Positions 15,997 through 32,172 of a DNA stretch of 64,000 nucleotides are shown here, piece after piece. The notes under the pieces are model-generated. The model saw only the letters and a program-made list of their open reading frames with translations. It did not search any database and was not told the DNA's origin. The number at the start of each line of letters is the position of its first letter. Position 1 is the first letter of the stretch. The translations under genes were made by a program, and so were the position numbers. The stretch is from a virus: the IMG/VR virus record IMGVR_UViG_3300010396_000045, positions 29,590 to 93,589 of that record; one strand, 5' to 3'.

Positions 15997-15997
15997 A

Positions 15998-17179
15998 TCA
16001 TGGTATGCTCAAAGAAACAGTTGCCGATGAAGCCTGCGCTGCCTCGTTGAAGGCTATGGGCACGTCGGCGGAAGCCGGCGCACCGCCGCCACGAGACATG
16101 AGAAGCGAAGTCAGGTTGAACGTCGTGTTGTCCGTCCCGGCGATCGAAAGCGCCGCCCAGATAACGTGGGTCAGGTAGACGTTCGTCCCGATGGGAACCG
16201 AGTTGATATAATTGACTACGGCAGCAACGATCTCGTTACCTACCGTGCTCGTAAAGCCCTGCAACGCAGTCAAGTGGATGACGACCGTGATCTGAACGTC
16301 TGTCACCACGAAGAAGTTGTATGTGTGCGGGATGTTATATGCGTCCAGGACGATTTCGCTCGTCGTCCCGTAGGTTCCGGCTCCTGGCGTCTTATGGGCC
16401 GCAATAGCGTTCGCTATCTGCTGCGTATCGCCGCCCTCGACGACGAAGGACACCGAGTGAGAGGGTATCCCGTTGCTGTCCGTCAGAGACGTGTCGTTCT
16501 CGTAGACCCGAAGCCGGGTAACGCCGTTGACCGCAAAGACAGCGCCCGTCATGCCATCGATGGCCGTCACGCTCGGGAGCATGGTCGAGACCGTCTGGCG
16601 CGCCCTAAGAGCGGGATCGGACTCCAACGGAGCGCCGGCCAGAGCGGACTGTAGAAACGATGCCGACTGCCAGCCAAGGATAGGCGTTGCGATCGTCACT
16701 GGACCGGCAGGCGACGTTATAGCGCCTGCTACGGAGGCTGTAGCGGTTACAGTCGCTTGGCCCGTCGTATCAATGACAGTGACTGTCGGAAGCGTCCATT
16801 GGTTGCCGCTGCCGTCCCGGACTATGCCGTCGAGGATCACCGTCCCGGCCACACCAATGCACTGACAAAGTGCCGTGCTATTAGTCGGCAATTCTCGCGC
16901 TAGGCCATTGATCTTGACGACGCTGCTAAGGCCTACGCCGACTGCGGTAGACGGCGAGTAGCTATTGTAGACAGCCGTAGCCATCGAGTTCGTGTCGTAG
17001 ATAGCCTGGGCGAAGATGCCGAGGAGCTGACCGTCCTGCCCGTCGCTACCAAGATAAACGTCCGAGCCGAATATCCCCTGCACCTTGCCCTGCAAGTATG
17101 AGAGGATGTCCGTGAAGGCCGGACTGTGGATACCAGTATCATCCACATAGCAGGCGGTCGGGCTAGTCGTTCCGCTCAT
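15998..17179 (-). CDS. Baseplate J / Mu gp47-like protein
   Basis: GAPLESDPALRARQ, YENDT, VEGGD motifs; synteny. Confidence 0.9.
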   Translation of the reverse strand: MSGTTSPTACYVDDTGIHSPAFTDILSYLQGKVQGIFGSDVYLGSDGQDGQLLGIFAQAIYDTNSMATAVYNSYSPSTAVGVGLSSVVKINGLARELPTNSTALCQCIGVAGTVILDGIVRDGSGNQWTLPTVTVIDTTGQATVTATASVAGAITSPAGPVTIATPILGWQSASFLQSALAGAPLESDPALRARQTVSTMLPSVTAIDGMTGAVFAVNGVTRLRVYENDTSLTDSNGIPSHSVSFVVEGGDTQQIANAIAAHKTPGAGTYGTTSEIVLDAYNIPHTYNFFVVTDVQITVVIHLTALQGFTSTVGNEIVAAVVNYINSVPIGTNVYLTHVIWAALSIAGTDNTTFNLTSLLMSRGGGAPASADVPIAFNEAAQASSATVSLSIP

Positions 17180-17182
17180 CCG

Positions 17183-19723
17183 TCACCCGACTTCGCCTGA
17201 GGTTATGACGATCACGGCGTCCCATTGGTCGGTATTAGTGGGGTGAGTGAATTCAACGTCTATGCAACTATTCGCATTATCCCGCGCGATAGTGGCTCCT
17301 ATCCCCGTTGTCGTCCCGACCGACCTAGTTCCATCCGGGTTTACGGTAGTAGTCACACCATCTAAGAGCGTGCTGGTAGACGTATGGGCAATAATATGTG
17401 GGCCGACACTTCCGCCGCCCCACATAGCCGCCCAACTGCTTCCCGGCGTTGTCTTGTCTGTGGCGACGAGCATAGCGGTGAAACCGTAAGCCCCATTGAG
17501 CGGCACGTTCATGCAGTTCGCAGAACCCGCCGCATTGCCGTCCGATGTTAGCCTGATAGCGCCACCCGATGTGGTTCCCTTGCCGCGCAGGACGATCTTT
17601 CCCGTCTGGGCGTCGCCTTGTGTAGCAAAGTCCCCGCTTCCCCATACATCCGCTCCTATGCGACCATTGTCGCTAGTGAAGCCGCCACCAGCCCGACTAT
17701 ATTGGGTTCCGGTAATCTTATTACTCTGCCCCCCTCCTATGAAGGAGAAGCTAGAATTAACTGTCGAGTTGTTCTCTCCGCCGATGATAACGGAGGCGGT
17801 CCCGTTCGTTACGCTCGTATTTAGCCCACCGATAGCGACCTCAAACGCGCCTGTGGCAGCACCGCCGCACAGTCCCATGATGATACTGTTTTGCCCCGGA
17901 GCGGCAGGGGAAAGATTGGTGCAGAATGATGAGCTATACCCACTCAGGTTAATGCCGCCATTATAAGTAGGAGGCGTTATGAATGGATATGGGTTGCCTA
18001 TGAATGTATAAGAAGCGCTGGTCACACCTGGCGCGAAGTACGGCTCTGATACCCCGTTAATCGAGTCCACGCCGTCTATCTGGATATTATGCGGGGCACG
18101 AGGGACGACAACCGTCCATGTATCTCCGGCACTGGCTGAGCCGGACCATGGGAACACCATGTCAGTAAATGAGAGGACGCCACTCGATACCGTTACCCCG
18201 GTCTGGCTGTTCCCCCCAGACGGAGCGGTTATATCAAAGGTGGTGGCATTCTCCGCTGTAACCGTATAAGTGCCGGTAACAGCTTTGGCGGTTATACCAT
18301 AATCAAACTTGCAAGTGGTGCCGCTTGCCACAGAGCCATTGTCATATCCGGGCTCTACGGCAACTCCCGTGTCAGTGCTCAGACGCGCTATTGGCACGTA
18401 GTTGGGAACGCCGGAAATCGGGCCTCCGCAGGTGAACTGCATGTTCACACCCAGACCTGCAGTGGAGGCGAAGTAGATGTGTCGCCCGTCACCCTGTGCA
18501 TTGGTCGTCAATGTGATCGGCGTATCCGCGCCGCTACCCGCGTTGCCCGCTCCTGGAGTCAGGGTCGCCCCGGCCCTATAACCGAAAACGCTAATTGCCG
18601 TCCCGGCATGGTAAACCTGCTGGTTGGAATTAGCCAAGTTGCTTGACGTCCGGTTCCCGTTGGGCATTAGGTAGTTCGAGGGGGCGAACACGACCGGAGA
18701 CCCAGTTCCTCCCGGCTGGCGCGTCGCCTCTAGGTCATAGATGAGGTTCGTGTCGCTGTTCCCAAAGACGATCCCATCCCCGTTCTGATACCATGCGCTT
18801 AAGTAATGCACACGGTTATAAGAGATGTTGTAGCTTGAGCTACTGTCTCCATTGAACAAGATCCCTGTCGGGGAATAGGCGCTGTTGGTCGAACGCGAGA
18901 TGATCCATATGTCGTTGCTCTGCGTTCCAGGGGCGTCTGTCAGAGTTGGCTGGGTTGTCAGCAGCGCTCCGACCACTCTAGGTTCAGCAACACCAATCCT
19001 GATCTGGCTATCCGATACGCTAGAGAACTTTGCACATATGTCGGCGAGAGACGCGCAGTCGAACACGATGTCGGTCACATCGGCAGAATACAGGGTCATT
19101 GTTCCGGACGGTTCAACGTCCAGCATAGTCCCATCAGCGGCTCCGATCCAAAGAAGCCGGGTCACTGACTGCCACCTGTTAAACTGGGTATTGTCTCGCT
19201 TATCGCCAATCCCCGCACCCTGAAGGTGGACGCCACGAGTATTCTGGGTGATCGTCGTCGCTAAGCCGAATAGGCCAGTCGGTATCATCACTGTGCGACC
19301 ACCAAGCGCGACAGCCTGGGCAATCGCCGCGTTGATGCACGGTCCTACGTCGTGCGTCGAATCCCAGGTACAAGAGCCATAGTCCACGGCCTGGATTACA
19401 TCGTTTGCCCGGTCGGATGGAGACCTGGCTGTGCCGCCTCCAGTTGCGGTAAAGGTAGTGGACCCAAGACTTGTCGGCGATAGCGGGGTATATCCTAGAG
19501 ACGATGTTATGACGCTAGGCTGGAAACCAGGAGAACCACCGACTGCCCCGTTGATTGTTGGGGTATTAAGAGTCCCACTGTTTACATCTGTCTTGCTAGA
19601 GAAGTAGCCCTGCCAATCTGTGACCGACGGGATCTGGCCCTTCGTAAAGGAGGGAGCACTCTGCGCAAAAGCAGAGCCAGCCGTCAGTACGGCCCCGAAC
19701 AGGGTAGCGACGAGCACTTTCAT
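17183..19723 (-). CDS. Beta-helix (pectate-lyase-like) protein with apparent Sec signal peptide
   Basis: MKVLVATLFGAVLTAGSAFA-Q; DYG..HDVGPCINAAIAQA..GRTVMIPTG. Confidence 0.65.
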   Translation of the reverse strand: MKVLVATLFGAVLTAGSAFAQSAPSFTKGQIPSVTDWQGYFSSKTDVNSGTLNTPTINGAVGGSPGFQPSVITSSLGYTPLSPTSLGSTTFTATGGGTARSPSDRANDVIQAVDYGSCTWDSTHDVGPCINAAIAQAVALGGRTVMIPTGLFGLATTITQNTRGVHLQGAGIGDKRDNTQFNRWQSVTRLLWIGAADGTMLDVEPSGTMTLYSADVTDIVFDCASLADICAKFSSVSDSQIRIGVAEPRVVGALLTTQPTLTDAPGTQSNDIWIISRSTNSAYSPTGILFNGDSSSSYNISYNRVHYLSAWYQNGDGIVFGNSDTNLIYDLEATRQPGGTGSPVVFAPSNYLMPNGNRTSSNLANSNQQVYHAGTAISVFGYRAGATLTPGAGNAGSGADTPITLTTNAQGDGRHIYFASTAGLGVNMQFTCGGPISGVPNYVPIARLSTDTGVAVEPGYDNGSVASGTTCKFDYGITAKAVTGTYTVTAENATTFDITAPSGGNSQTGVTVSSGVLSFTDMVFPWSGSASAGDTWTVVVPRAPHNIQIDGVDSINGVSEPYFAPGVTSASYTFIGNPYPFITPPTYNGGINLSGYSSSFCTNLSPAAPGQNSIIMGLCGGAATGAFEVAIGGLNTSVTNGTASVIIGGENNSTVNSSFSFIGGGQSNKITGTQYSRAGGGFTSDNGRIGADVWGSGDFATQGDAQTGKIVLRGKGTTSGGAIRLTSDGNAAGSANCMNVPLNGAYGFTAMLVATDKTTPGSSWAAMWGGGSVGPHIIAHTSTSTLLDGVTTTVNPDGTRSVGTTTGIGATIARDNANSCIDVEFTHPTNTDQWDAVIVITSGEVG

Positions 19724-20214
19724 CCGAGGAAGTCCACCCCTATTCGCCCTGTGCCAATTGCAAAGTCTGTAGAAGGACTTGTCGGAGCGGTTCCGGTACC
19801 TGGAGGTGTGGGAGTTACCGTCTGCGCTCCGCCACCCGTCTGTGCAATGCCAGCGATCGGCAATAGCACATCAGAGACTGGCACTACTCCGTAGATCGTA
19901 TCGAGAGACACCGAGACGTTGAACGTCCGCGTGGCACGGTCGAGGCTGCTGCTATAGCTCAGGATGACGTTTACGCCAGGAGTCGTCAGGATCCGGTTGC
20001 GGATGACAGCGTCCCGCGTTGCCTGCGTATTACGCCCCAGGACGCCCGTAGGCCACGCGGTCCCGTCCGTAGTATCAAGGAACCACTCCCCACTCCATAG
20101 GGATAATCTCGTCTTTACAGCCTGCGCAACGGCGTCCGGCGTGTTGACGTAGAACGCGGAGATACCGCCGCCGAGGCTATAGTCTCCGCTTGCGTCGAGG
20201 GCTCTGTAGCGCAC
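19720..20214 (-). CDS. Baseplate wedge initiator (Mu gp46-like)
   Basis: MRYRALDASGDY, AVKTRLSLWSGEWFLD, DTIYG. Confidence 0.85.
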   Translation of the reverse strand: MRYRALDASGDYSLGGGISAFYVNTPDAVAQAVKTRLSLWSGEWFLDTTDGTAWPTGVLGRNTQATRDAVIRNRILTTPGVNVILSYSSSLDRATRTFNVSVSLDTIYGVVPVSDVLLPIAGIAQTGGGAQTVTPTPPGTGTAPTSPSTDFAIGTGRIGVDFLG

Positions 20215-20551
20215 TCTTGCGTCGCTCCTGGATGTGGAGGAGTTCCTCCTCGGTCAGATCCTCGATCCGCTGCATTTGATTCGACGCTCTAGCGGTCGCT
20301 GCGATCAACTCATCAAGCTTGAGCTGCATAGCAAGAGTGTCGCGGTTCTGGCTGTGCTGGAGGAGGAAGACCATAAGGAAGGTGATGATCGTCGTGACCG
20401 TGTTGGCGATAAGCTGCCAGGTGTCAGAAAAGTCGAATAGCTGCCCGGTAGCGAGCCACGCTATGACAAGTATAACCGCCGAGACGAAAGCGTAGGCATG
20501 GCCGCATTGCACGGCCATCCACCGCGCTAGCCGTGCAAACTGCTCGTTCAT
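20177..20551 (-). CDS. Low-affinity iron permease (Fet4-like) family membrane protein
   Basis: FSDTWQLIANTVTTIITFLMVFLLQHSQNRDT..QLKLDELI is the family signature. Confidence 0.85.
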   Translation of the reverse strand: MNEQFARLARWMAVQCGHAYAFVSAVILVIAWLATGQLFDFSDTWQLIANTVTTIITFLMVFLLQHSQNRDTLAMQLKLDELIAATARASNQMQRIEDLTEEELLHIQERRKSALQSPRRKRRL

Positions 20552-20553
20552 TC

Positions 20554-21363
20554 CTAAGTCCCTGGAGTTGGTGGGACTGTCTGGGCGGCAGCCGGAACAC
20601 CAGCTACGCCGTGCCTGTGAGTAGACAGCCCCACCTGGTCTGCCGTCCCAAAGCCGCCCGTTACCGTCCCGGTGATCTGCAAGTTGCCGTTGATCTTCAC
20701 CAGAGGACAGTTAATCGTCATCAGGCTCGCGCTGTTGACAGTCACGGTAGGCGCAGTGACCGTAGCCGAATTGTTGGCCGTCACGGTCACGCTAGAAGCG
20801 CCGGTAATGTTGACGACGTTGTTCTGCGCGTCCGCCTCTATCGTTATCCCCTTGACGACCAGCCTGACCTTCTCGTTGTCGTTATCGACCTCGGCATAGA
20901 TCGACCCGTCGCTCGTCCGGAGCTGCGCCGTCGTCGTCGAGAGGTTGCTGATCTTTGTGGCTTGAGACCAAGGCCCAGGTATCGCGAAGCCGTCCGACAA
21001 ATCGTGCATTCGCAATTCTCGCTGCGTTTGCACTCCGCCTTGCTGCCACCAGTTGTCGATGCACCGGGAGCTGAAAACGATCAGGCATTCGTCCCCCTGC
21101 TGCACCGGAAACGTCAGCGCATATTGCCCGCCCCGAGGAAAGATAACCGGGACGTCGGGAATGACAGGCATGACCTTCCATTCCTTCGTCTGGTCTGGCC
21201 CCGTATAGAGCGCGTGTAGCGCAGGCTGGACCTGTGCCGTTATCGTATCCGCATCGTAGCTGGTGATGATGCCGGGTAACGCGGTCCAAATGCCGGATTG
21301 TCTGCTCTGAATAGCACTTTTAACCGCGCTCTGGGGGTTTTCGTAGCGTTCTCGGTCTTGCAT
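20554..21363 (-). CDS. Baseplate central spike (Gp138/gp45-like)
   Basis: DVPVIFPRGG, GDECLIVFSSRCIDNWW, RMHDLSDGF; C-terminal HRH metal-binding apex. Confidence 0.9.
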   Translation of the reverse strand: MQDRERYENPQSAVKSAIQSRQSGIWTALPGIITSYDADTITAQVQPALHALYTGPDQTKEWKVMPVIPDVPVIFPRGGQYALTFPVQQGDECLIVFSSRCIDNWWQQGGVQTQRELRMHDLSDGFAIPGPWSQATKISNLSTTTAQLRTSDGSIYAEVDNDNEKVRLVVKGITIEADAQNNVVNITGASSVTVTANNSATVTAPTVTVNSASLMTINCPLVKINGNLQITGTVTGGFGTADQVGLSTHRHGVAGVPAAAQTVPPTPGT

Positions 21364-22466
21364 TATAGAGGTGTCGTCCCCGGCGAAGGTCCTAACACAG
21401 CCGATGCAGATAGAGGCGGAGGGGGAGGAACGTTGAGGTTAGCTTGCGGCGTGTTAGCCGTGGGATCTACCGATAACGCCGTAAGCCTAGTGTACCACTC
21501 GCCGCCTCGCGTATCACCGACGTGGCTCGCGTAGATCACGACATAGTCTCCGTCGCTATTCAGCGGAGGAACCCATGCTCCCTGGTTCCCAAAGGCAGCA
21601 TTAGGAGAAGCCGCCCGTTGGTTTATCGTCGCATTAGCTGCCGCAAGGCGTAGCTGCGCAATCTCACTATTATTGAAGCGAACCCGCGCTCCCCAAACGA
21701 CACTTGGGTTCAACAAGCACATCGCCTGTATTCCCGTTTCAGTCTGTTCCGGAGTTCCTATCTGGCCTGTGGCCGAATTTATGATTACTGCCTCTCCAGG
21801 ACGGACAGAAAACTTTGGGAGAACCTGGAGCTGGTTTTGATAAATGTTCCAAGTGCACGAATAGGAGTCAGCAAAATCGTCAAGATAATCGCGTGTTAGC
21901 CCATGCATTACCTTACCACGAGGAGCCGGCTGGGCCTGCAAGCCATCGGGAGGGCCGCCATATGTTGCCTGCCACGGAGAAAGTGAATCGGCACAGTGTT
22001 GAAGAACATCCTCGCTCGTATAGCCTTTTGCTAGGCTCTTGGAGAGGAATCCGAAATTATGGGCCATATCTCCGTCAGCCGCAAAGATGTCGATGTATGT
22101 ATCTACATTGGACTCTTTGCCGGTACGGAGTTGATAGATGTAGCCCTGGAATAGTTGACCAAAGTTCTGCTGGTAGCCGGCCTTCAACACGACCTGCGCC
22201 GAAGTCTTCCTAGGAACTCCGACTATCGTCGCACCGTTCTGGCTTGCTAGACCTACAATCCTTTCCGTAGTGTTGGAACTCAGGTTATAAACTCTTGCAT
22301 GTAGAGACGCGGGGGTATCTCTCGTCCAATAGTTGACAGTGAAACGAATCCTCAAGACATTCGGCTGGTCAGGACCCGCTAGCTCGATACCATTACCTTG
22401 CATGTCAGCAACGACGAGGGAGCATGCTCGCAGCCACTGAGCAGCGCTACTTACTGTCTGGCTCAC
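21363..22466 (-). CDS. Baseplate hub protein
   Basis: RVYNLS, LKAGY..LFQG, CLLNP, GDTRGGEWY; synteny. Confidence 0.85.
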   Translation of the reverse strand: MSQTVSSAAQWLRACSLVVADMQGNGIELAGPDQPNVLRIRFTVNYWTRDTPASLHARVYNLSSNTTERIVGLASQNGATIVGVPRKTSAQVVLKAGYQQNFGQLFQGYIYQLRTGKESNVDTYIDIFAADGDMAHNFGFLSKSLAKGYTSEDVLQHCADSLSPWQATYGGPPDGLQAQPAPRGKVMHGLTRDYLDDFADSYSCTWNIYQNQLQVLPKFSVRPGEAVIINSATGQIGTPEQTETGIQAMCLLNPSVVWGARVRFNNSEIAQLRLAAANATINQRAASPNAAFGNQGAWVPPLNSDGDYVVIYASHVGDTRGGEWYTRLTALSVDPTANTPQANLNVPPPPPLSASAVLGPSPGTTPL

Positions 22467-22496
22467 TTGCTTCTTGCCGCCGTAAAGCTATATAAT
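22467..22496 (+). promoter_or_regulatory. Promoter for pentamer-repeat RNA A
   Basis: TTGCTT-N18-TATAAT just upstream of the array. Confidence 0.6.
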
Positions 22497-22514
22497 GAGG
22501 CACGCTCCCCAGAG

Positions 22515-22607
22515 CGCATGGCTTGGTGTAGTCCGGTCAGGCGATGTATGGCGCGGTGGGGCTTGGAAGGGCAGTGTCAGGTATGGCACGGCTGGGTAAG
22601 GCAAGGA
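22515..22607 (+). ncRNA. (GGY-NN) pentamer array A, putative guide RNA (18 variable dinucleotides)
   Basis: cgcAT ggcTT ggtGT agtCC ggtCA ggcGA tgtAT ggcGC ggtGG ggcTT ggaAG ggcAG tgtCA ggtAT ggcAC ggcTG ggtAA ggcAA gga; own promoter and terminator. Confidence 0.85.
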
Positions 22608-22640
22608 GAGCGGGGCTTAGGCTCCGCTCTATTTCTTTCT
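22607..22640 (+). terminator. Intrinsic terminator after array A
   Basis: AGAGCGGGG-cttagg-CTCCGCTCT stem then ATTTCTTTCT. Confidence 0.7.
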
Positions 22641-22829
22641 GTCCAGCCCGATCATCATGAGCCGACGAACTGCTTCTGGCCGGGTCGGCAAATCATCCTG
22701 AACTCGCCGCCAGTCATCCAACCGTACTAGCTGCGACCGCTCTAGCCGTACGTTGACCGCCTCGCTATCTACGCTTGGCCTGCCAATTTTCTTTGCCGAT
22801 TTCTTAGCGCCGGATATTGACATGCCCAA
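22629..22829 (-). CDS. Ribbon-helix-helix DNA-binding protein
   Basis: GRPSVDSEAVNVRL..LDDWRR..PTRPEAVRRL; divergent from HNH/RAMP genes. Confidence 0.75.
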   Translation of the reverse strand: MGMSISGAKKSAKKIGRPSVDSEAVNVRLERSQLVRLDDWRRVQDDLPTRPEAVRRLMMIGLDRKK

Positions 22830-22855
22830 TACATAGCGCTATGCAATCTGCATAG
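22817..22855 (+). promoter_or_regulatory. Promoter TTGACA-N17-TATGCA overlapped by perfect operator CTATGCA-ATC-TGCATAG (22839-22855)
   Basis: Direct sequence; upstream of the HNH-RAMP-array operon. Confidence 0.7.
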
Positions 22856-22872
22856 CAACACGGAATACATGA

Positions 22873-23298
22873 ATGCCGTGCCAGGGTCTAATCGGCGACT
22901 ACTCATGCTCTGGCTGGCGCTCACTTGCTCAGCATATCCGAGAGCGCGACGGCAACCGATGCCGGGGCTGTAACCGGGGGCAGGAGACCATCGCGCTTGA
23001 GGTTCACCATCGGACCTACGGGACTCCGGGCCGCCCATGCGGAGCGTGTTATCTGACTGCCGTAGAAGACGACGACCTAGTTACCCTCTGCATTGAGTGC
23101 CACGAAGCGGTGACGAACGTGCGCCGGAAAGTGCGCTACGCCACCAGAAGCATAGAGATCGATACGATTGACCCTCCTGTGGCCGTAGTAGAGCCAGTCA
23201 GGAGGGTTCTGATCGTTCCCGTCGAACTGGTTCCTCCTCCGGTAGCCGCCGGAGTCGTAGTCAGGCCTAAGAAGTTCAATCCATTCAGCGAAGGTTAA
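22873..23298 (+). CDS. HNH endonuclease (McrA-like core) with C-terminal tail
   Basis: RERDGNRCRGC..LEVHHRTY..LVTLCIECHEAV. Confidence 0.85.
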   Translation: MPCQGLIGDYSCSGWRSLAQHIRERDGNRCRGCNRGQETIALEVHHRTYGTPGRPCGACYLTAVEDDDLVTLCIECHEAVTNVRRKVRYATRSIEIDTIDPPVAVVEPVRRVLIVPVELVPPPVAAGVVVRPKKFNPFSEG

Positions 23299-23300
23299 GT

Positions 23301-23891
23301 ATGCACAAAATACTCAAGACACGTCTAATCTCTGTTGCGCCATTTATCATGCACAACGGTCAGACTGCCGATCCCCTAAACAAGTTCGCCAAGGCGATGA
23401 AGGAAATCAGCGGCAAGCGGAAGAAGACCGAGGCGGACTTCATTGAACTGGCCCGCATCGAGTACTTCGCCGGCCTTTACATCGATAAGGATGGCCCAAT
23501 CATCCCATCCGTAATGCTAGAAGCTATGATTACGAAAGGCGCGGCAAAGGCCAAGAACAGTAAGCTAGCCGAGGCCGGAGTTATCGTCGACCAGCACGGT
23601 TACCTAGAATACGACGGTCCTCGGACCCCGGAGGAACTTGTCGCTGACGATCGGTTCCGGCTGACAGTTCCTGTCCGCATCGGCCAACAGAAGGTCATCA
23701 GGACGCGCCCAATCTTCCGGCAATGGGCGGCTGACATCGAGATCAAATACCTGGATGATATCATTAACGAACGCGACCTGCTTACCGCACTGCGGGCAGC
23801 GGGCACGTATGTCGGCATCGGTGACTGGCGCCCGCGCAACGGACGCTTCGCTCTCGCTGCCGATATGGCAGCCTTGAAAGAGGCGGCCTAG
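23301..23891 (+). CDS. RAMP/Cas7-like RNA-binding protein associated with pentamer arrays
   Basis: N-terminal strand + PFIMHN, IIPSVMLEAMI helix, RTRPIF..W thumb, C-terminal Gly-rich loop AGTYVGIGDWRPRNGRF. Confidence 0.7.
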   Translation: MHKILKTRLISVAPFIMHNGQTADPLNKFAKAMKEISGKRKKTEADFIELARIEYFAGLYIDKDGPIIPSVMLEAMITKGAAKAKNSKLAEAGVIVDQHGYLEYDGPRTPEELVADDRFRLTVPVRIGQQKVIRTRPIFRQWAADIEIKYLDDIINERDLLTALRAAGTYVGIGDWRPRNGRFALAADMAALKEAA

Positions 23892-23979
23892 GGCTTGGTC
23901 AGGTCAGGCTCGGTATGGCTCGGCAGGGCAAGGCATAGTTGGGCAGTGTCCGGTCAGGCTTGGTATGGCTTGGTGAGGG
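23892..23979 (+). ncRNA. (GGY-NN) pentamer array B (17 units)
   Basis: Starts right after the RAMP stop; NN = TT CA CA TC AT TC AG AA AT TG AG CC CA TT AT TT GA. Confidence 0.85.
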
Positions 23980-23988
23980 CTTTCATAG

Positions 23989-24033
23989 CGGGGAGGAGGC
24001 GATACGTCGCCTTCTCTTCGGTGCGAAAGTACC
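23989..24033 (+). other. Two hairpins separating arrays B and C
   Basis: CGGGGAGGAGGCGA-tacg-TCGCCTTCTCTTCG and GGTGC-gaaa-GTACC. Confidence 0.65.
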
Positions 24034-24115
24034 GCATGGTCGAGTACGGCCTGGTCAGGTGAGGCTGGCTATGGCGCGGTCTAGTCAGGTCCGGCGATGT
24101 TGGGTATGGCAGGGA
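24033..24115 (+). ncRNA. (GGY-NN) pentamer array C (16 units)
   Basis: Begins CGCATGG like array A; NN = AT CG AC CT CA GA TG AT GC CT CA CC GA TG AT AG. Confidence 0.8.
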
Positions 24116-24124
24116 AACTACTTT

Positions 24125-24511
24125 ATGATACGAGTACTGACCGTCACGGCAGCAATCCTATTAGCAGGATCTCTAGCTAATGCGGATGAGATCCGCTGGT
24201 TCGCGGGGCGCTATGTCAACGTTATGGATGGCTATGCCTATAGCGATCCCGACTCAATGATCGAGTGCTCTATAGATAGAGACTGGACAAAACCTCCGCT
24301 ACCCCAGTTCCGGCATAAGCCGGCCCATGGCTCTTGTCAGCATGTCCTTCGTTCCGCAGCCAATCCTGGCTTCGTCCCATTTAGGGACGGATGGTTTATC
24401 AATACCGAGCCACCATACGCAGGTATTATAGGTATGCAGTGCGGCGCGACTGTCGGCCAGAAGGATGGGGGATTCTGGTGTGACTGGCCCCCTTATGGAA
24501 CCACAAAATAA
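24125..24511 (+). CDS. Small exported protein
   Basis: Likely start MIRVLTVTAAILLAGSLANA (signal peptide); the track's N-terminal extension is a translation of the arrays. Confidence 0.6.
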   Translation: MIRVLTVTAAILLAGSLANADEIRWFAGRYVNVMDGYAYSDPDSMIECSIDRDWTKPPLPQFRHKPAHGSCQHVLRSAANPGFVPFRDGWFINTEPPYAGIIGMQCGATVGQKDGGFWCDWPPYGTTK

Positions 24512-24876
24512 AGGTGCCCAGTCGTTCCAAGACCTGAGAAGTCCGGAACGCCGTCCGGATCACCGTCGACCTGGACCATAAGCGCTCCCCCGATGCCGAG
24601 GTATTCGTACTGGTAGAGTAGGTCGATGCCTGGGATTAGTGGCAACCCGGCGGCAATCGAGTTGCCAGTCGTATCACTGATATCCAGAAGCCAGCCGTCC
24701 AGCACGTTAGTGTCGAAAACCACATTCTGGCTAAGCGTATCTGCACCGATGGGTGCGCCAGATATTCCAGCGTTGGCCTCATGGTAGGTCAGCCTCATCG
24801 TATAGGTTACGCCCGCAAGCTGGATAGAGAATTCCTGCGCTTGGGCGATAAGCGGGATCTCGTACCATGTAGCCAT
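24493..24876 (-). CDS. Baseplate plug-type small tail protein
   Basis: YEIPL..FSIQLAG, WLLDISD, PLIPGIDLLYQYEYLG. Confidence 0.8.
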   Translation of the reverse strand: MATWYEIPLIAQAQEFSIQLAGVTYTMRLTYHEANAGISGAPIGADTLSQNVVFDTNVLDGWLLDISDTTGNSIAAGLPLIPGIDLLYQYEYLGIGGALMVQVDGDPDGVPDFSGLGTTGHLYFVVP

Positions 24877-25481
24877 CAGGCCGCGATCCTCGTAATCACG
24901 TTCCCCGTCTGAAGCGTGTCGCTGAACGTCGACGCCTGCTGCTGCGGCTGAACCGCACCACGCTGCGCTACCGCCGCCGTAGTCTGGGGAGAGGACTGCG
25001 CCGAAGCAGGGGTGATCTGCGCCGCCTCCGTGGAGACGATGATAACCTCTCGGCAGACCATGACGGCCTGGAGCGCGTATTCCGAGGCGCTGTTCGTCGT
25101 GATCCCTAGGCTGATGACCAGCATGTTGAGGTAGAGGCTCTTGCCGGTCGTGATCGATATCAGCGACGGAGGAGGCCCCTGAAGCGCCAGGAGCTGCTGG
25201 TAGACGTCCTGAACCCGCGTCTCGTAATAACCGCTATTGGACCAGGACCAGCGAAGCGTGACCTCGCGCGGCTTCTTGTATGCGTGGTCGGCAATGACGG
25301 TCCCGATCTCTACGGGGTGTTCCGTAACCTGGACGTCGTCCCGGCTGGTTTCCTCAATCACGCAATCAGGTAGGATAATGCCCCATGGCCCGCTGATCCC
25401 CCGAGGCCTCCGAAGGAGGAGAACGTCCGTGACCTCTAAGAATGTAGCGGCAGCAGAGAGCGCCGTGAGAGCGCCACTCAT
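24876..25481 (-). CDS. Dit-like tail tube initiator
   Basis: VTEHPVEIGTVIADHAYKKP, YLNMLVISL. Confidence 0.8.
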   Translation of the reverse strand: MSGALTALSAAATFLEVTDVLLLRRPRGISGPWGIILPDCVIEETSRDDVQVTEHPVEIGTVIADHAYKKPREVTLRWSWSNSGYYETRVQDVYQQLLALQGPPPSLISITTGKSLYLNMLVISLGITTNSASEYALQAVMVCREVIIVSTEAAQITPASAQSSPQTTAAVAQRGAVQPQQQASTFSDTLQTGNVITRIAA

Positions 25482-27739
25482 TGGAACGCACCTTGCTGGT
25501 TGCGCTGAAGGTCTGCCCAGTGCCGGCGGTTATATTCGTCCCACGCGCGACCTACCGCGTTCGGATCAGCAGATGTGTTGATGGTGACGTTGTTGTTCTG
25601 CGTGATCGAATTTCCGGCCTGGAAAGAGTCGCCTTGCAGCCTAGGGTCGGCTCCTAGAGCCTTGGCGTAGCTTAGACGCTTTCCTAGAGACCTATCGTCA
25701 GCGCCAGGACGTTCGTTGAAATTATAGTCCGCGACCGTCGCGCCTAAAATATCCTTCGTCTGGCTCAGCATGAAGCCGGCCTTCGCCTCGCTATGCTCCT
25801 GTTCCCACTTCGCGAAGTCGAGCTGCTCGTGCATCGAAGCCGACGTTAGCGGCTTACCGTATAACGACTGGAATGTAGCCTGCCGCTGCTGGTCCCACTG
25901 CCGCAAGCCGGCATGGCCCGAAGCATTGACGACGGTCGTGCTTAGACCGCTCTCGGCCATCATGTTCGAGACCATGCCGATAGCCTGGTGCATCGGCACG
26001 CCCTTGGACATGAGGTATTTGACCGCCTCAATCGCCTTCGGATCGGTGATGCTCTTTACCGCGTCCTCGCCGCCAGACGCGCCGCCTCCGAATAAATGAC
26101 CGACGATCCCTGCGCCTAATCCAGTAGCCCAGGAGCCAAAGCCTCCGGTCCCGCCTTCGCTCATTCCCTCAAGCGTGTCGTTCAGCTTGGCCATCTGAGT
26201 CGATAGCTGTTTGACGTTCGTCGGCAGCTCCGCCCCCTCGGCGACGGAGACGGGATTCAGATAGCTCAGGACGTGGCCCAGGCGCTCCAGGAGCGAGGGA
26301 CCGCCGCTCCCCTTGTCTAGTAGCAGTTCCGGGTTGGTCGGCCCCTCACGCGCCCCAGGAGGCGCCGCGCGGAAGCCTGGGCGGCTGCGTGGATCTCCTA
26401 TCTCGTCCTGCCCAGGACCGGCCATCTCGCCCTGGCCTATCGTCATCCCGGCGTAGACGCCGCCAGCTACTCCAGCGAGAGGGCCGAGGAAGCGTGCTGC
26501 CGCACCCGCTCCGCGCAAGATAGTACCTACAAGCCCCGTCAAACCCGCAGCAAAGCCAGTGCCAGTCGCTGCTACCGTTGCGCCCGCTGATACCGCCGCA
26601 CGAGCGATGGCAGCAAACCCAGTTACGAACGAGACGACAAAGCGCCCGACGAAATAAGCCTCTAGCGCATGGAGTGGGGTAATCCAGCCGTTCGTCGCCT
26701 CGGCCAGCTTTCCCATGAGTTCTAGGAGCTTGCTAAGGCCGCTCTCGATCTCGCCCCACGGCAGGAAGCTCTTTCCGGTCTCCTGGAAGCGCTTGTAGTC
26801 CTCGAATAACTGAGACAGCAGCCCGATCAGGAGCGCTATCTTGCTCGTCTCGGGGAATATGAACGCCGCCATGATGGCAGCTATCGCCGTGACGATCTGC
26901 TGCTGGTCGGCAGGTAATCGCTCGAACCACCCGACGACCTTTCCGATCATCTCTACCGCGCCGCCGAACGCGGAACTGATGTGCTGGCCTATCCGGTCTA
27001 GAGTGCTGATGATCTGGTCTGAATGGCTATCCAGCCAGCTAGTCATCGTCTGGAGAGCTGCCGTCATCCTTTGCAGGATCGGCAAGCCCTGATGACCCAT
27101 TATATCATTTAAGCGTAGCTGGAAGCTCTGCCACGCTCGCTCAAAGAGCGTCGATTGCCTAGCGAACTCGTCTGGATCGAAATGGAATAGGCGGCGCGCG
27201 AAGTTGAACTCTTGGACGCCTTCTCCGACCTGGCCACCTCTGGTCAGAATCGCATTGAAGAAATCGGCACCGAGAAACTTCTCAAACTGCTGTCGGATAA
27301 TGAACTGTTGGCCGGCTGACTCACGAGCGAAGCGCTCGCCGAAGTGCTGGAGCTGCTGGGTTAAGGAGCCAGGACCGGCATACTCTGTAAAGACTTGCGC
27401 CCACCCAGGCTGGGTGCGCATCATATGCGCGAGGTTAGACAGAGCCGTCATGGTCTGCTGGGGAGCTAGACCTAGCTTCTGCCAAGCGAACGTCAGCGCA
27501 TCGATGTTGTTGACGGTATCATTTACCGTCATAGCTAGATACTGCATCTGCGAAGCGCTGCTCGCCATGTTGGCGACAGCCGCAGTTACAGCACCAGCAG
27601 CGCCTGCAATTCCGGCGCCAAGGCCGATAACGGCATTGGACATACTGGTGATGGCATCGAGGAATCGTCGTTGCGAACTCTCATCGACCCTATATCCAAG
27701 AGTCGCTAAAAATTCTTTGATTACGACGGTATCAGCCAC
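25478..27739 (-). CDS. Tape measure protein with C-terminal tail lysozyme domain
   Basis: IKEFLATLGY start; helical Ala/Gly-rich body; NMMAESGL..GLRQWD..EQLDF. Confidence 0.85.
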   Translation of the reverse strand: MADTVVIKEFLATLGYRVDESSQRRFLDAITSMSNAVIGLGAGIAGAAGAVTAAVANMASSASQMQYLAMTVNDTVNNIDALTFAWQKLGLAPQQTMTALSNLAHMMRTQPGWAQVFTEYAGPGSLTQQLQHFGERFARESAGQQFIIRQQFEKFLGADFFNAILTRGGQVGEGVQEFNFARRLFHFDPDEFARQSTLFERAWQSFQLRLNDIMGHQGLPILQRMTAALQTMTSWLDSHSDQIISTLDRIGQHISSAFGGAVEMIGKVVGWFERLPADQQQIVTAIAAIMAAFIFPETSKIALLIGLLSQLFEDYKRFQETGKSFLPWGEIESGLSKLLELMGKLAEATNGWITPLHALEAYFVGRFVVSFVTGFAAIARAAVSAGATVAATGTGFAAGLTGLVGTILRGAGAAARFLGPLAGVAGGVYAGMTIGQGEMAGPGQDEIGDPRSRPGFRAAPPGAREGPTNPELLLDKGSGGPSLLERLGHVLSYLNPVSVAEGAELPTNVKQLSTQMAKLNDTLEGMSEGGTGGFGSWATGLGAGIVGHLFGGGASGGEDAVKSITDPKAIEAVKYLMSKGVPMHQAIGMVSNMMAESGLSTTVVNASGHAGLRQWDQQRQATFQSLYGKPLTSASMHEQLDFAKWEQEHSEAKAGFMLSQTKDILGATVADYNFNERPGADDRSLGKRLSYAKALGADPRLQGDSFQAGNSITQNNNVTINTSADPNAVGRAWDEYNRRHWADLQRNQQGAFQ

Positions 27740-27792
27740 GGATGGACGATTTTCCTGTTGCTACAATTGGCGGCATCAGAGAGGATATTCCG

Positions 27793-27993
27793 ATGTCTGA
27801 GAAACCTGTTGAAGATCAGCTATCCGCAATAGCATCAGAGTTGGTCTGGGATCTCGTAGACCGCTTGGGAGAGATAGGAGACCTAAGCGGCATCCCCGCC
27901 GGCGCCTGGGACGACTTTGAGAAATGGGCAGTATCGGAGACACTGCGCGTGCTAAAGCTGGCTCGCGAACTGCCTAATGCCTCGGAGCGTTAA
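27793..27993 (+). CDS. Small antisense-inserted hypothetical protein
   Basis: GAGGA RBS before MSEKP. Confidence 0.45.
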   Translation: MSEKPVEDQLSAIASELVWDLVDRLGEIGDLSGIPAGAWDDFEKWAVSETLRVLKLARELPNASER

Positions 27994-28219
27994 CCTGTTG
28001 GACTCTTCTCTCGTTCTCGCTGCGGACAGAGAGCGCGTCGTTCATTAGGGAAATGTCGTAGAGGTCGACCGCCCCGTTCTTCAGGCTCTCGTAGCTACAC
28101 AGCCCCTCAACAACCGGCGTCATTAGGTAGTCCAGCCCGTCCTCTAGCTGGACATATTCCCTTGGCTCGCGCCAGTTGTCGGGGAGGGTTGGAGTGTAGC
28201 TGAGAGAGGGGCGCGCATA
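27974..28219 (-). CDS. Tail assembly chaperone -1 frameshift extension (gpT-like)
   Basis: -1 frame open from GAATTTTA region: ...DYLMTPVVEGLCSYESLKNGAVDLYDISLMNDALSVRSENERR..*. Confidence 0.7.
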   Translation of the reverse strand, partial: YARPSLSYTPTLPDNWREPREYVQLEDGLDYLMTPVVEGLCSYESLKNGAVDLYDISLMNDALSVRSENERRVQQVNAPRH

Positions 28220-28632
28220 AAATTCGACAGGTTCTCCTGGATCACCTGGAATGTGATCTGCAACAGCGCCATGCCGTCAATGTCCTCGAACTGCATACGC
28301 TTCGCCGCAGCGTTCCAGACCGGCGTCCAGCCCGTCCCCTGGTTGCGTGATACGACCGAGAGGCAGGTAGAGGATATGAAGTCCACGTCCTCCGACTTCA
28401 TCTCCGCTAGGCCTTCGATAACCGGCAGCATCATCTCGGCCATATCGACCATGGGACGATCATCGCCATTGGCCCGAGCCTGCGCTTCGGCCTGCAAGCG
28501 CTGCCGCATCTCTGGTGTGGGGGTAAGTGACACCAGGAGAGGAGCTAGCTTGCGGGCTACGTGTAGCTGCGAAAATGCATCAAGCTTTCTGACTAGTCGG
28601 TACTGCTTTCCGTCGACCTCGAATTCCGTCAC
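28144..28632 (-). CDS. Tail assembly chaperone (gpG-like)
   Basis: KLDAFSQLHVARKLAPLL, ENLSNF; between tube and tape measure. Confidence 0.8.
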   Translation of the reverse strand: MTEFEVDGKQYRLVRKLDAFSQLHVARKLAPLLVSLTPTPEMRQRLQAEAQARANGDDRPMVDMAEMMLPVIEGLAEMKSEDVDFISSTCLSVVSRNQGTGWTPVWNAAAKRMQFEDIDGMALLQITFQVIQENLSNFMRAPLSATLQPSPTTGASQGNMSS

Positions 28633-29096
28633 GACAGCACCGTGCTACCCGCGCCTAGCGTCTCGAAGATGTATCCGGCGTTGAACTGCCACTCGATCAC
28701 GTTGGCGTCCTTCGCGTAGGTGTTCGCTGGCTGCCGTCTGAACGCACAGAACATGCAGGTAATCGCGTCCCCGCGCGAGAAGTCGGTGATGACGATCGTG
28801 TTGCGGCCCCAGTTCGCAGAGCTACTGGACTGGAACGCATACATCGCCGAGAGCAGCGCATTATACGCTGAGACCTTGAGGAGCCGAACAGTTACAGTGC
28901 CGCCCTGGCCCGCATGCAGGCTATGCATAGGCTCGCCGCCTGCGCCGATCTGTAGAGTGTCCTTGTCCTCGCTTAGCTCAAGCGAGATGCCGCCTTCAGC
29001 AGCGCCAGCTTCGTTAGCTAGCGAGAAGGCGCCGCCGGGACCAACAATCGTTGCCCCTACATCGACGAAAGAATATGCGCTGAAGCCGACAGGCAT
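28629..29096 (-). CDS. Tail tube protein (DUF3277-like)
   Basis: YSFVDV, AEGGI, GEPMHSLHA; follows sheath. Confidence 0.85.
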   Translation of the reverse strand: MPVGFSAYSFVDVGATIVGPGGAFSLANEAGAAEGGISLELSEDKDTLQIGAGGEPMHSLHAGQGGTVTVRLLKVSAYNALLSAMYAFQSSSSANWGRNTIVITDFSRGDAITCMFCAFRRQPANTYAKDANVIEWQFNAGYIFETLGAGSTVLS

Positions 29097-29156
29097 GGCT
29101 CTTTTCTACCTTTTAGAGTTGAACCGGGCGCAAGTCCCGTTTAAGTAAACCGTTAG

Positions 29157-30098
29157 ATGAGCACGCCCCGATTTAAGACTGATCCAGACAATCATCCTCG
29201 TCCGATGCCAGGAGCCTATCTGGTAAGGAACCTAATCAACGGAAAATGCTATGTCGGAATCAGTCAAAAGGTCAGTCGTCGGAGGGCAGAACACACCAGA
29301 GGCGACGGAACAGCGCCTCTCCTGACCAAAGCTATTCGCAAGTACGGCGTAGAGAACTTCGAGTTTGTCCCGCTATTCTACTCAATGACAGGAACTCTGT
29401 TTCTCCCAGAGCTGGAAGCAACTCTCATTGCTGCCTATGACGCTCTGGTGCCTAACGGATACAACGTTCAGGCGTCGTCTGGAGCAGTCGGTCCTTACGG
29501 CCCTGCGTTCGGCGAAATACTCCGCCTAGCCTTTGCAAAGCCAGAAACTAAGGCGCGCAAGAGTGCCGCCGCTAAGAGTCGAGATCCTATTCTAATGAAG
29601 AAGTTCTGGGAAGCCGCGCAGGCCCCAGAAGTCAAGGCCAGAGCCATCGCGACAATGACAGCCACCAGGAGGAGACCGGAAGTCCGTCTAGCTCAGTCTA
29701 TTCGGGTGAAAGCTATGAATGCTGACCCGGAGTTCGTCGCTAATCGAACGCAGAAGGCAGTTCTGACGAAGTCAGATCCCGCATGGAAAGCCAGGGTAGC
29801 CCCGAGCTATTCGGAGGCACAAAACCGTCCCGATGTGAAAGCTAAGAAGTCCGTAGCGATACAGGCTGCCTTAGCGACCCCGGAAGCTAAGGCCAACAGA
29901 TTAGGGAGATTCTGGATAACGGACGGAACGGTCGAGTTAAAGGTTGCTAAAGGCAGCACGATTCCCGATGGATGGACCCGTGGTCGGAATAGCAAGTTCA
30001 AGGAGGCTCATTCTCCCGATGCTATGGGGAAAATAGCAAGGAACCCCAGACCCCCTCGTCGCGGATATAAGTTACGCCGGATCAACGGTTCACATTGA
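29157..30098 (+). CDS. Free-standing GIY-YIG homing endonuclease with NUMOD3-like repeats
   Basis: GAYLVRNLINGKCYVGIS, AIRKYG..FEF, PNGYN; reads on + strand (ATGAGCACG at 29157) although the track labels it minus. Confidence 0.85.
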   Translation: MSTPRFKTDPDNHPRPMPGAYLVRNLINGKCYVGISQKVSRRRAEHTRGDGTAPLLTKAIRKYGVENFEFVPLFYSMTGTLFLPELEATLIAAYDALVPNGYNVQASSGAVGPYGPAFGEILRLAFAKPETKARKSAAAKSRDPILMKKFWEAAQAPEVKARAIATMTATRRRPEVRLAQSIRVKAMNADPEFVANRTQKAVLTKSDPAWKARVAPSYSEAQNRPDVKAKKSVAIQAALATPEAKANRLGRFWITDGTVELKVAKGSTIPDGWTRGRNSKFKEAHSPDAMGKIARNPRPPRRGYKLRRINGSH

Positions 30099-31599
30099 TA
30101 ATGACATTGGCTTGGTGCACGGCGCCGGCCAATTTTACAGCAGCCTGGATCGTTGGTGCGATACGCGCCGCTCGCTGATCCTCGCTCTGTGAGTTTACGT
30201 CCGGGGCGTAGCAATAATATCCCTTATCCAGATACTGTTGCGGCTTTAGCTGTCCGAAGACTGAACTGCTGTTCCACTGCCCAGGTGCGATGAGGCCATT
30301 GTTCAGCCCGTCGATCATCGCCGCCTCGACGCCGGTCAGCAGGATATGCATGCCCGGGTTGGTCAATGGGATCTTCGTATTCGCGGTGAAGAGGATATTG
30401 AACAACCGCGTCTGGGTGTTGTTCTGAAGCCAGTCGAGGCCTTGGCGCTCGTCGATGAAGAAGCCGCCGCTCATCACGCCTTGCTGGATGATGGGCGTAA
30501 AGCCCGCTACACCGTTCGCGTAGTTGACGTAGACATTGACGTTCTTGTTCGTCAGCGCCTGCGCCTGGGTCTCGGATAGCGTCTCTGCCACCACGCCAGG
30601 CTCTTGCTTGAACTTGCCGGTAATGACCGAGTTCTGCGCCGTAAAGTCTACCGTCGCGAACCGGCCTAGCAGCGAGAAGACTGCGTAGGCAGACGAGGAG
30701 CTGTACTGAACCAGCGTGTGCTGTAGGTCGAGGCTCTGGAGGACAGAGCCAAGGTCGCCAGTCTGCGTAGGATCCGCTACCGCCGCTTCCTGGGTCGTGA
30801 TGCCGTAGATCCGCGACGGGTTCTCGGCCTCAATGACCGTTGCAACCGCTTCGTGCTGGCTGTCGGTGATATCCGAGGAATTGACCGGAGCGAAGCCGCA
30901 CGCATACCAGGAGTTAGAGGCAGCAGCGAGCGCGGAGACGGCTACAACCGGCGTCTCGGCAGCAATGCCCGCCACCGGAGCAGAAGCCCCAGCGGCTTGC
31001 GACAGCCCGCTAGTGGTAGAGATATCCGTCCCACTCCCTGCTGTCGTGGCGTAGCTGACCGCGCCGCTCGTGCCAGTCGTAATGCCGCGCACTTTCAGGC
31101 GAGAGTAGGGAGCGTCCCACTGGCAAACAGTGCCCGCAGGCAGACCAGCCTGGATGATGCTCGCTACGCCGTTCATGTTGGTAGCGGTCGAGAAGTTTAG
31201 CCCCGTCACCGTATGCGGAGTGCCGTCGATGCTGATCGTAAAGCTACCGGACGTGATAGCGTTCCACGTCGACATGCTCTGGTTTGTCGTCGATAGCGCC
31301 GCGCCGTAGAGCCAGCCATGCGTTGCCGACTGCGCCCATCTGCCGATGTAGCAAAGGCTCGGCTGGGGCGTCTGAGCAAAGAATAGCGCCGCTGCTTGTG
31401 CCTCGGGGTTAGTCGTCCCGAAGTCAGCCTGGACTTGCGTCAGCGTGCTGTACTGGCGGAAGCGCTCGGATACGTTGATGATGCCCTCGGTCGGGCCGAT
31501 GATCATAACGGTGCCGAAGTTCCGTTGCGCTAGGGGCAGCGGGCTAAGGCTGACCTGGACCGACACCACATCCGAAACAGACAAACCCGAGCCTGACAT
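30082..31599 (-). CDS. Tail sheath protein (DUF3383)
   Basis: FFAQTPQP..YIGRW, KFKQEPG, KLAGAVH. Confidence 0.9.
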   Translation of the reverse strand: MSGSGLSVSDVVSVQVSLSPLPLAQRNFGTVMIIGPTEGIINVSERFRQYSTLTQVQADFGTTNPEAQAAALFFAQTPQPSLCYIGRWAQSATHGWLYGAALSTTNQSMSTWNAITSGSFTISIDGTPHTVTGLNFSTATNMNGVASIIQAGLPAGTVCQWDAPYSRLKVRGITTGTSGAVSYATTAGSGTDISTTSGLSQAAGASAPVAGIAAETPVVAVSALAAASNSWYACGFAPVNSSDITDSQHEAVATVIEAENPSRIYGITTQEAAVADPTQTGDLGSVLQSLDLQHTLVQYSSSSAYAVFSLLGRFATVDFTAQNSVITGKFKQEPGVVAETLSETQAQALTNKNVNVYVNYANGVAGFTPIIQQGVMSGGFFIDERQGLDWLQNNTQTRLFNILFTANTKIPLTNPGMHILLTGVEAAMIDGLNNGLIAPGQWNSSSVFGQLKPQQYLDKGYYCYAPDVNSQSEDQRAARIAPTIQAAVKLAGAVHQANVIINVNR

Positions 31600-31602
31600 C
31601 GG

Positions 31603-32172
31603 CTAGTTCTCCTGAGAGGCGGTTATTGTGCAATGAAGTCCGGTGTCAGTAATGAAGCTGACCGAGACCTGGGCGATGGCCGGAATAGAATCGTATGTCC
31701 GGTCAATAAAGCGGACGAACGACATCGGAATGTCCGAACGCGAGACGTACTGGCTGTTTATCAGCTCCCCGAGATGCGTCGTCTCATCGACGCTGCGGAG
31801 CTTCAGACCTTGCGCGGATAGCGTCTCGTGGTTCTGCGGGATGTAGATGCCGTCCCGTAGGAGTGCAGCATACCAAGCCGACTGAGGACCGTAGAACGTC
31901 GCTAGAGCGTCTACTCGCTCATAGCGATGCAGGGAGCCGGAGGTATCGTCGTCCTGAGTCCATATCGGGTAGTCGTACGGCGTGTAGCCGGTGATGCCGA
32001 TCGCGCACCAGGTCGTAGTGACTGACGGCTGCGTCGGAGGCTGCGGTTGCCAGCGCGGTCTAATCAGGTTTCCGGCTAGACCCGTCACGCCCGCGATCAT
32101 CGCTTGCAGTATGCCGGCGAGCGCGTCGTCGTTTGGCGGCGGGCTTCCACTTGCGAGAACGTAACCACTCAT
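31603..32172 (-). CDS. Neck/tail terminator protein
   Basis: IRPRWQPQPP, FYGP; synteny. Confidence 0.75.
   Translation of the reverse strand: MSGYVLASGSPPPNDDALAGILQAMIAGVTGLAGNLIRPRWQPQPPTQPSVTTTWCAIGITGYTPYDYPIWTQDDDTSGSLHRYERVDALATFYGPQSAWYAALLRDGIYIPQNHETLSAQGLKLRSVDETTHLGELINSQYVSRSDIPMSFVRFIDRTYDSIPAIAQVSVSFITDTGLHCTITASQEN

Follow-up and report, generated by a model that had tools for sequence, protein, structure and literature searches.

A probable Viral Interference Programmable Repeat cassette, with an HNH-type accessory gene and a guide that fits a sibling's baseplate hub gene, within the tail genes of an uncultured phage from soil

Here we describe a cassette of small genes and phased pentamer arrays in a 64,000-nucleotide stretch of viral DNA (hereafter the window), which covers bases 29590-93589 of the 93.6 kb IMG/VR record IMGVR_UViG_3300010396_000045 (CheckV completeness 87%). 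We consider it very probable, with odds of about nine in ten, that this locus, set in the tail-gene module of an uncultured soil phage of ~94 kb, is a Viral Interference Programmable Repeat (VIPR) cassette. Systems of this kind have already been described in 2026 preprints (bioRxiv 10.64898/2026.04.26.720920,.720927; bioRxiv 10.64898/2026.10.15.759431) and were also recovered independently by a language-model survey, and the present locus joins them as a further member. The evidence comes from a protein homologous to a structurally solved VIPR protein, from three arrays in its immediate vicinity that keep the expected five-nucleotide phase, and from one array that decodes, under the published pairing rule, to the baseplate hub gene of a closely related phage.

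The protein at the centre of the cassette is encoded by a 196-amino-acid (aa) open reading frame (ORF), vipr (23301-23891, plus strand). It aligns with the solved Vipr protein of SUSP1 (PDB 36pp_D) over residues 3-185 (E 8.5e-30) and falls in phrog_4652 (E 3.5e-53), and no Pfam family matched it. In the SUSP1 protein the GGY bases of the RNA are contacted by H17, R138, D177, W178, and R179, and DNA is contacted by K33 and R39 (structural preprint, 2026 VIPR preprints). In a HMMER alignment, H17, K33, R39, R138, D177, W178, and R179 correspond to H18, K34, R40, R136, D175, W176, and R177 here, and all seven residues are invariant or nearly so in an alignment of 35 homologues (alignment A1); SUSP1 K82 aligns with A82, next to which lies K83. 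The closest homologues share 60-88% identity. An AlphaFold2 model built on the homologue alignment reached a mean confidence (predicted local distance difference test, pLDDT) of 93, and Foldseek placed it closest, among PDB structures, to the Csm3/Cas7 subunits found in type III effectors (E 8e-5, probability 1.00). A first-pass annotation, made from the letters of the window, had proposed a RAMP/Cas7-like protein in a system that resembled VIPR-type systems and had named a Foldseek comparison as the check; both the fold and the resemblance were supported. Homology shows this to be a minimal RAMP protein that keeps the residues by which SUSP1 Vipr binds each GGY. The protein-collection entry for vipr is a 180-aa product starting from Met17, and the start at 23301 is the better call because homology to SUSP1 Vipr and its relatives begins at residues 2-5.

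Three arrays of pentamers, A, B, and C, accompany the gene, all on the plus strand, in strict 5-nucleotide phase and in the register NNGGY. We refer to their putative transcripts as vrRNA-A (22518-22607; 17 units ending at 22602, plus a terminal AAGGA), vrRNA-B (23890-23979; 17 units ending at 23974, plus a terminal GAGGG), and vrRNA-C (24036-24115; 15 units ending at 24110, plus a terminal AGGGA). GGY is kept in 13, 15, and 11 units of A, B, and C, respectively, with AGT, TGT, GGA, and one GCT as variants. A phase-aware scan of both strands found such arrays at only these three places in the 64 kb; three arrays in strict phase had been noticed on first inspection. Tandem Repeats Finder did not call them, since only three of every five positions are conserved and two vary freely. 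Array B begins at the vipr stop codon, and B and C are separated by a long hairpin (23975-24035, plus strand; -35.4 kcal/mol, z -4.8), which could be the 3' tail of B or a processing element and which none of 200 shuffled sequences equalled in folding energy; the arrangement is the one that the first-pass annotation had described. For array A, to which that annotation gave a promoter and terminator of its own, a terminator-like hairpin with a T run closes the array (22607-22640, plus strand), abutting the 3' end of a convergent 66-aa gene, and the putative promoter TTGCTT-18-TATAAT (22467-22496, plus strand), which was read by eye, has a perfect -10 box and a -35 box with 3/6 matches that falls below the consensus-scan threshold. 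An Rfam search of the region matched no family, so no hammerhead ribozymes lie between the arrays.

The terminal unit of all three arrays ends in a purine (GGR), and the same holds for 253 of 399 arrays in related loci, where the unit is GGG or GGA and usually reads A-R-G-G-R, and for wV8 and LittleE. Because the published Y pocket of Vipr excludes purines (bioRxiv 10.64898/2026.04.26.720920,.720927), the terminal GGR unit may mark the 3' end of the filament.

Published VIPR structures suggest how such a cassette would work. One Vipr protomer would sit on each pentamer of each of the three vrRNAs, hiding the GGY bases and displaying the NN dinucleotides, and the resulting filament would pair with double-stranded DNA read as NNxNNx, with one base skipped per unit. 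The idea that each subunit grips GGY and presents NN as a non-contiguous guide in conflict between phages, which had been put forward from the window's letters alone, is in fact the mechanism published for VIPR. The cassette would be expected to spare its carrier and to disable sibling phages, such as superinfecting relatives.

The pairing rule can be applied directly to the arrays. Under this rule, each NN dinucleotide pairs with its counterpart in a target of the form NNxNNx (bioRxiv 10.64898/2026.04.26.720920,.720927). The reverse complement of guide A was treated as a string of NNx codons and compared, by BLOSUM62 scoring, with the six reading frames of the 93.6 kb record; the best site, at window 21681-21734, lies in frame inside the phage's own baseplate hub gene (21363-22466, minus strand; phrog_196 'baseplate hub', E 3e-56), and its score of 63 was reached by 0/200 shuffled guides (38.1, standard deviation 3.6, maximum 54). 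Local scoring returned the same site, with values of 63-66 across scorings against 38-40 for shuffles. At the nucleotide level, a closer counterpart lies in a sibling phage. L233, a hub homologue fetched from viral contigs, encodes a hub protein 77% identical to that of the window, and at the homologous position (L233:3236-3286) guide A matches 28/34 NN bases (82%) in antisense orientation, the skipped bases all being wobble bases. When 0, 2, or 3 bases were skipped, the best scores at L233 were only 17-19, and shuffled guides averaged 18.8 (standard deviation 1.0, maximum 23). In silico, vrRNA-A reads, in antisense, codon positions 1 and 2 of a conserved hub stretch (QVMCLLNPAI.WGT..I). The mismatched counterpart in the window's own hub gene (21681-21731, minus strand; found as a peptide-level match) fits at 21/34 NN bases.

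The contrast between the carrier's allele and those of its relatives extends beyond this single pair. Among 37 hub homologues, the peptides of the closest relatives fit guide A at 11-14 of 18 codons, the best two at 14, against 9 for the own allele. When only positions at which at least 6 of the 7 closest relatives agree were considered, the own hub carried substitutions at 5/12 positions within the site against 14/222 elsewhere (Fisher p 0.001, in a test designed after the site had been seen). No guide scored above shuffled guides anywhere in the phage's own 93.6 kb, which agrees with the reported absence of self-targets in VIPR systems. In silico, these comparisons show guide A to be aimed, as far as decoding can tell, at a conserved stretch of sibling hub genes, with the linked own allele mismatched. 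One further candidate was rejected: a site at L221:6643-6695, the best found in the IMG/VR pattern scans, fits guide A at 30/36, and was judged a chance match because such a score is expected in AT-rich DNA at the size of the database (the contig has 38% GC) and because the bases skipped there are first codon positions in a 375-aa ORF.

The sibling is also informative about the position of the cassette. The L233 record aligns collinearly over its whole 12.5 kb with window 15653-31942 (75-87% nucleotide identity). vipr, vap, and arrays are all missing from it, and ~360 bp stand in place of the 2.0 kb island. In the corresponding slot, L233:2133-2500, which matches window 22477-24503, another small protein with a signal peptide seems to be encoded, on the opposite strand. 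Between the hub gene and the next virion gene there is thus a variable cargo slot.

The association between vipr and arrays is general. Scans of viral and genome contigs with single-protein queries returned no matches; alignment-based scans succeeded, yielding 136 related loci from IMG/VR and GTDB genomes and then 80 from metagenomes. With a strict caller applied to 137 loci, the vipr strand carried 226 arrays and the opposite strand 2; at least one array was present in 108 of the 137 loci, so that the co-occurrence check proposed at the outset came out in favour of the annotation. The arrays of relatives usually begin within tens of bases of the vipr stop codon, and a looser caller recovered 399 distinct arrays with a median of 13 units. 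No guide of the window, judged by its NN content, is common to any other locus.

Decoding was extended to the related loci, 245 arrays of which were compared with their own flanks of +/-3 kb only. Values of z >5 were obtained in 29 of 490 array-orientation tests, corresponding to 25 distinct arrays; 22 of the 25 decoded sites share the frame of a long ORF, and the own allele matches at 58-81% of NN bases. Seven of the ten annotated flanking ORFs belong to virion families, and these comprise major head protein, head-tail joining protein (connector), neck, tail protein, tail fibre, head maturation protease, and endolysin or tape-measure-like peptidase. Eleven of the 25 sites lie within ~600 nucleotides of the arrays. 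An enrichment of decoded sites next to cassettes is suggested by these counts but not established, the restriction to +/-3 kb flanks biasing the test towards neighbours. HNH-type VIPR loci whose guides decode in this way to diverged sites beside their own cassettes include L026, L058/L057, L085, L002, L004, L013, and L007.

Several results weigh against the reading of the locus as a working VIPR cassette with a sibling target, and are best considered together. Guides B and C gave no significant nucleotide or peptide match in the own record, the sibling fragment, or the fetched loci. Pattern scans of IMG/VR with both halves of guide A (9-unit half-guides), both halves of B, and the first half of C yielded chance-level seeds only, and no perfect target was among them. 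The 82% match of guide A is just above the 80% threshold of the preprint, and the substitution test was devised with the site already in view. Array C has no comparable 3' hairpin or tail structure and runs into the ribosome-binding region of the next ORF. Transcription, processing, and ribonucleoprotein formation are predicted for this uncultured soil phage; among sequencing runs, the sequence is present only in the probable source run of soil DNA, and no RNA run is listed. A peptide-level match of guide B inside the hub gene was also tried and rejected, being out of frame and within the range of controls.

Directly upstream of vipr lies a second gene, vap (22873-23298, plus strand), whose 141-aa product matches ten PHROG families, nine of them HNH, with E-values down to 4.6e-12; this accords with the HNH partner named in the first-pass annotation, nuclease activity itself being predicted. 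Residues C30, C33, H45, H46, C73, C76, and H77 (a CxxC..HH..CxxCH motif) are invariant in 24 divergent homologues (alignment A2). A structural model of Vap (pLDDT 77) has HNH domains as its best Foldseek matches (E from 3e-3), with the HNH domain of Cas5-HNH Cascade first, accompanied by phage GVE2 HNH, Cap5, and T4 endonuclease VII, whereas a PDB sequence search with Vap returned only chance zinc-finger matches. Homologues of vap stand directly upstream of vipr in 168 of the 204 related loci with enough flank. The gene stops 2 nucleotides before the vipr ATG in the window; in many relatives (L082, L012, L022, and others) its frame has no stop at this point and runs ~130 nucleotides into vipr in another frame, and an apparently conserved 'AQR' motif in the C-terminus of these Vap proteins corresponds to conserved vipr codons for MHNG read out of frame.

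An HNH-type accessory gene with an intact catalytic motif makes it plausible that the cassette would cut its target rather than merely silence it. Whether Vap is catalytic is uncertain, because the canonical HNH Asn position is D, A, or H across the family and because the Pfam HNH model scores Vap at 17.3 bits, under its cut-off of 21.4; both observations count against catalysis. They lend weight to the principal alternative, namely that the cassette only silences and that Vap is a DNA-binding helper, like vap1 of SUSP1, with a non-catalytic HNH fold. The incoming sibling would then be blocked in assembly by repression of its hub gene, provided that the resident copy is not expressed. The VIPR systems characterised so far are indeed transcriptional silencers. 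Set against this are the invariance of CxxC, HH, and CxxCH among the 24 divergent homologues, the fact that the folds closest to Vap are active HNH nucleases, including that of Cas5-HNH Cascade, and the nuclease action that the 2026 VIPR preprint predicts for types with nuclease-type vap genes. We rate pure silencing as somewhat less likely than not.

Should Vap cut, the position of the target would have a consequence of its own: since the site adjoins the empty insertion site, cutting would favour co-conversion of the cassette, as in homing or marker exclusion. According to this proposal, Vipr and vrRNA-A would bring the HNH protein to the sibling hub gene, ~0.75 kb from the empty site, and repair templated by the carrier would transfer both the cassette and the resistant hub allele to the sibling. 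Four observations are consistent with this: the target gene directly adjoins the cassette, the sibling has no cassette at precisely this position, the allele of the carrier is mismatched and shows an excess of substitutions within the site, and the same proximity (within ~600 nucleotides) recurs in the 11 decoded sites of related loci mentioned above. Against it, cleavage by Vap is a prediction from motif and fold, a single sibling fragment is insufficient for the detection of co-conversion tracts, the test of related loci was biased to neighbours by its flanks, and simple exclusion would likewise lead one to expect a guide linked to a resistant allele. We hold RNA-guided homing or marker exclusion to be rather unlikely.

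Two further explanations concern the guides themselves. The first, autoregulation, holds that vrRNA-A controls the phage's own hub gene as a late-gene regulator and has nothing to do with competitors; it draws on the observation that, at the peptide level, the guide fits best in the neighbouring hub gene of the same genome. At the level of pairing, however, the own site (21/34) equals the mean of shuffled guides across the genome, in contrast to the 28/34 of the sibling allele, and we consider this explanation highly improbable. The notion that the arrays are not guide RNAs at all but repeats that arose by chance or serve a structural role (as G-rich DNA, a regulatory element, or an artefact of coding) beside an unrelated small protein can appeal to the listing of a DNA run only and to the arrays going uncalled by Tandem Repeats Finder, and it deserves the least credence of all, given arrays in strict phase and confined to the gene strand in 108/137 homologous loci, a neighbouring protein homologous to a solved vrRNA-binding protein, and an array whose in-frame decoding to a gene of the sibling succeeds only with the published skip rule.

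Compared with known systems, the locus is closest to the type II VIPR of SUSP1 and of a Pseudomonas fulva prophage. It shares with them a homologous Vipr with the same GGY-contact residues and vrRNAs built of GGY/NN pentamers, one vrRNA upstream and an array downstream, carriage by a phage, the absence of self-targeting, and the rule of a one-nucleotide skip (here for guide A), by which the target is read at codon positions 1 and 2 of a competitor gene. There are also differences. The accessory gene is of HNH type and upstream of vipr, whereas wV8, Medea1, and LittleE carry a gene of the vap1 family downstream, a mark of type II; in the window, the arrays start at the vipr stop and no vap1-family gene directly follows. 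The genes after vipr in those phages—wV8 gp94, Medea1_0008, and LittleE gp33—are related to one another, with wV8 being SUSP1-like, and no protein of the window is similar to any of the three. The arrays hold 15-17 units here versus the 9-16 reported for VIPR, the tails are predicted to be simple hairpins (with none for C) as opposed to the SUSP1 pseudoknot, and the inferred target is a sibling baseplate hub in place of the satellite recombinase or lysis-lysogeny regulator targeted by type II systems. In a tree of Vipr proteins, the window sits within a large radiation in which an HNH gene is the rule, and vap1-type loci occupy basal long branches. With an unrelated upstream HNH partner and vap1-type loci on basal branches, the architecture is that of VIPR but not that of SUSP1 (type II).

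Other VIPR types offer a nearer parallel for the accessory gene. According to the 2026 VIPR preprint, types III-V carry nucleases or helicases, HNH domains are found among the vap folds, and types III and V show enrichment in host defence islands. A predicted nuclease-type vap would be a point in common with types III-V; the cassette here lies in a phage tail module, not in a defence island.

Likenesses outside VIPR are more limited. Class 1 CRISPR-Cas systems, including the HNH-Cascades (type I-E and I-F with Cas5-HNH or Cas8-HNH), likewise assemble a filament of RAMP subunits along a guide RNA, with bases flipped at regular intervals, but the likeness is one of fold only (Vipr to Csm3, and Vap to the HNH domain of Cas5-HNH Cascade), and no CRISPR repeats, cas1, cas2, or other Cas subunits are present here. 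The absence of cas1/cas2 and of CRISPR repeats, already stated in the first-pass annotation, was upheld by Pfam searches for Cas1 and Cas2 across the complete 93.6 kb record, which were empty with positive controls run, and by the lack of CRISPR-type repeats in the region. The period also differs, being 5 nucleotides with 2 informative bases here versus 6 with 5 in CRISPR, and the HNH protein is encoded by a separate gene. Free-standing HNH homing endonucleases of phages are similar in being small CxxC/HH/CxxCH proteins encoded in a structural module, with a sensitive site in the adjacent gene of a sibling and a resistant allele in the carrier; in contrast to these, specificity here would come from Vipr and its vrRNA, and the gene is strictly linked to vipr across phyla.

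The cassette forms a 2.0 kb plus-strand island between the baseplate hub gene and the next virion gene, comprising array A, a divergent 66-aa repressor-like gene, the 141-aa and 196-aa ORFs, arrays B and C, and a 128-aa ORF, among neighbours that are mostly virion genes on the minus strand. These neighbours include a 269-aa ORF (20554-21363) that is spike-like by sequence reading and has no PHROG match, genes for a virion protein and a tail protein (24493-25481), and an ORF (25478-27739) that looks tape-measure-like from its translation.

Within the island, the 66-aa gene (22629-22829, minus strand), which is divergent from vap, encodes a ribbon-helix-helix-like protein (phrog_4738 'transcriptional repressor', E 1e-5) with homologues at the same position in 6 related loci, and is possibly a regulator of the cassette. 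Upstream of vap, a promoter-like site (TTGACA-17-TATGCA) was read from the sequence, and a perfect copy of the palindrome CTATGCA-N3-TGCATAG (22839-22855) overlaps its -10-like box. Allowing at most 2 mismatches, this palindrome occurs 9 times in the window (at 3592, 5750, 22839, 40626, 41742, 45201, 50945, 56214, and 63813) against a chance expectation of 0.17, and is probably the operator of a phage-wide regulator. A copy at the vap promoter-like site, next to a repressor-like gene, suggests that phage regulators control the operon. This operator-bearing promoter seems to serve vap, vipr, vrRNA-B, and vrRNA-C as a single operon, and vrRNA-A looks like a separate transcription unit.

Directly after array C, the 128-aa ORF (24125-24511, plus strand) encodes a protein with an N-terminal signal peptide, and the terminal AGGGA of the array, 9 nucleotides before its ATG, resembles a ribosome-binding site. 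As it falls in no Pfam or PHROG family and lacks homologues in more than 130 related VIPR loci, this ORF is probably separate cargo (a moron).

Almost all experiments on VIPR concern the SUSP1 and P. fulva type, which silences with a DNA-binding partner, and the present locus is a clean natural example of the much larger group with an HNH partner, inside a real phage genome. It offers a candidate target in the sibling hub allele, a matched resistant allele of its own, and a cassette-free sibling, making two questions testable: whether HNH-type VIPR systems cut DNA, and whether such systems serve phages in the exclusion or conversion of near relatives. Were the HNH protein a guided nuclease, the result would be a compact system (196 + 141 aa) with a pairing code unlike those of CRISPR and TIGR; and if homing were true, the cassette would act as a gene drive in phages, and no earlier natural nuclease would have been programmed by an RNA code that is non-contiguous (2-of-3).

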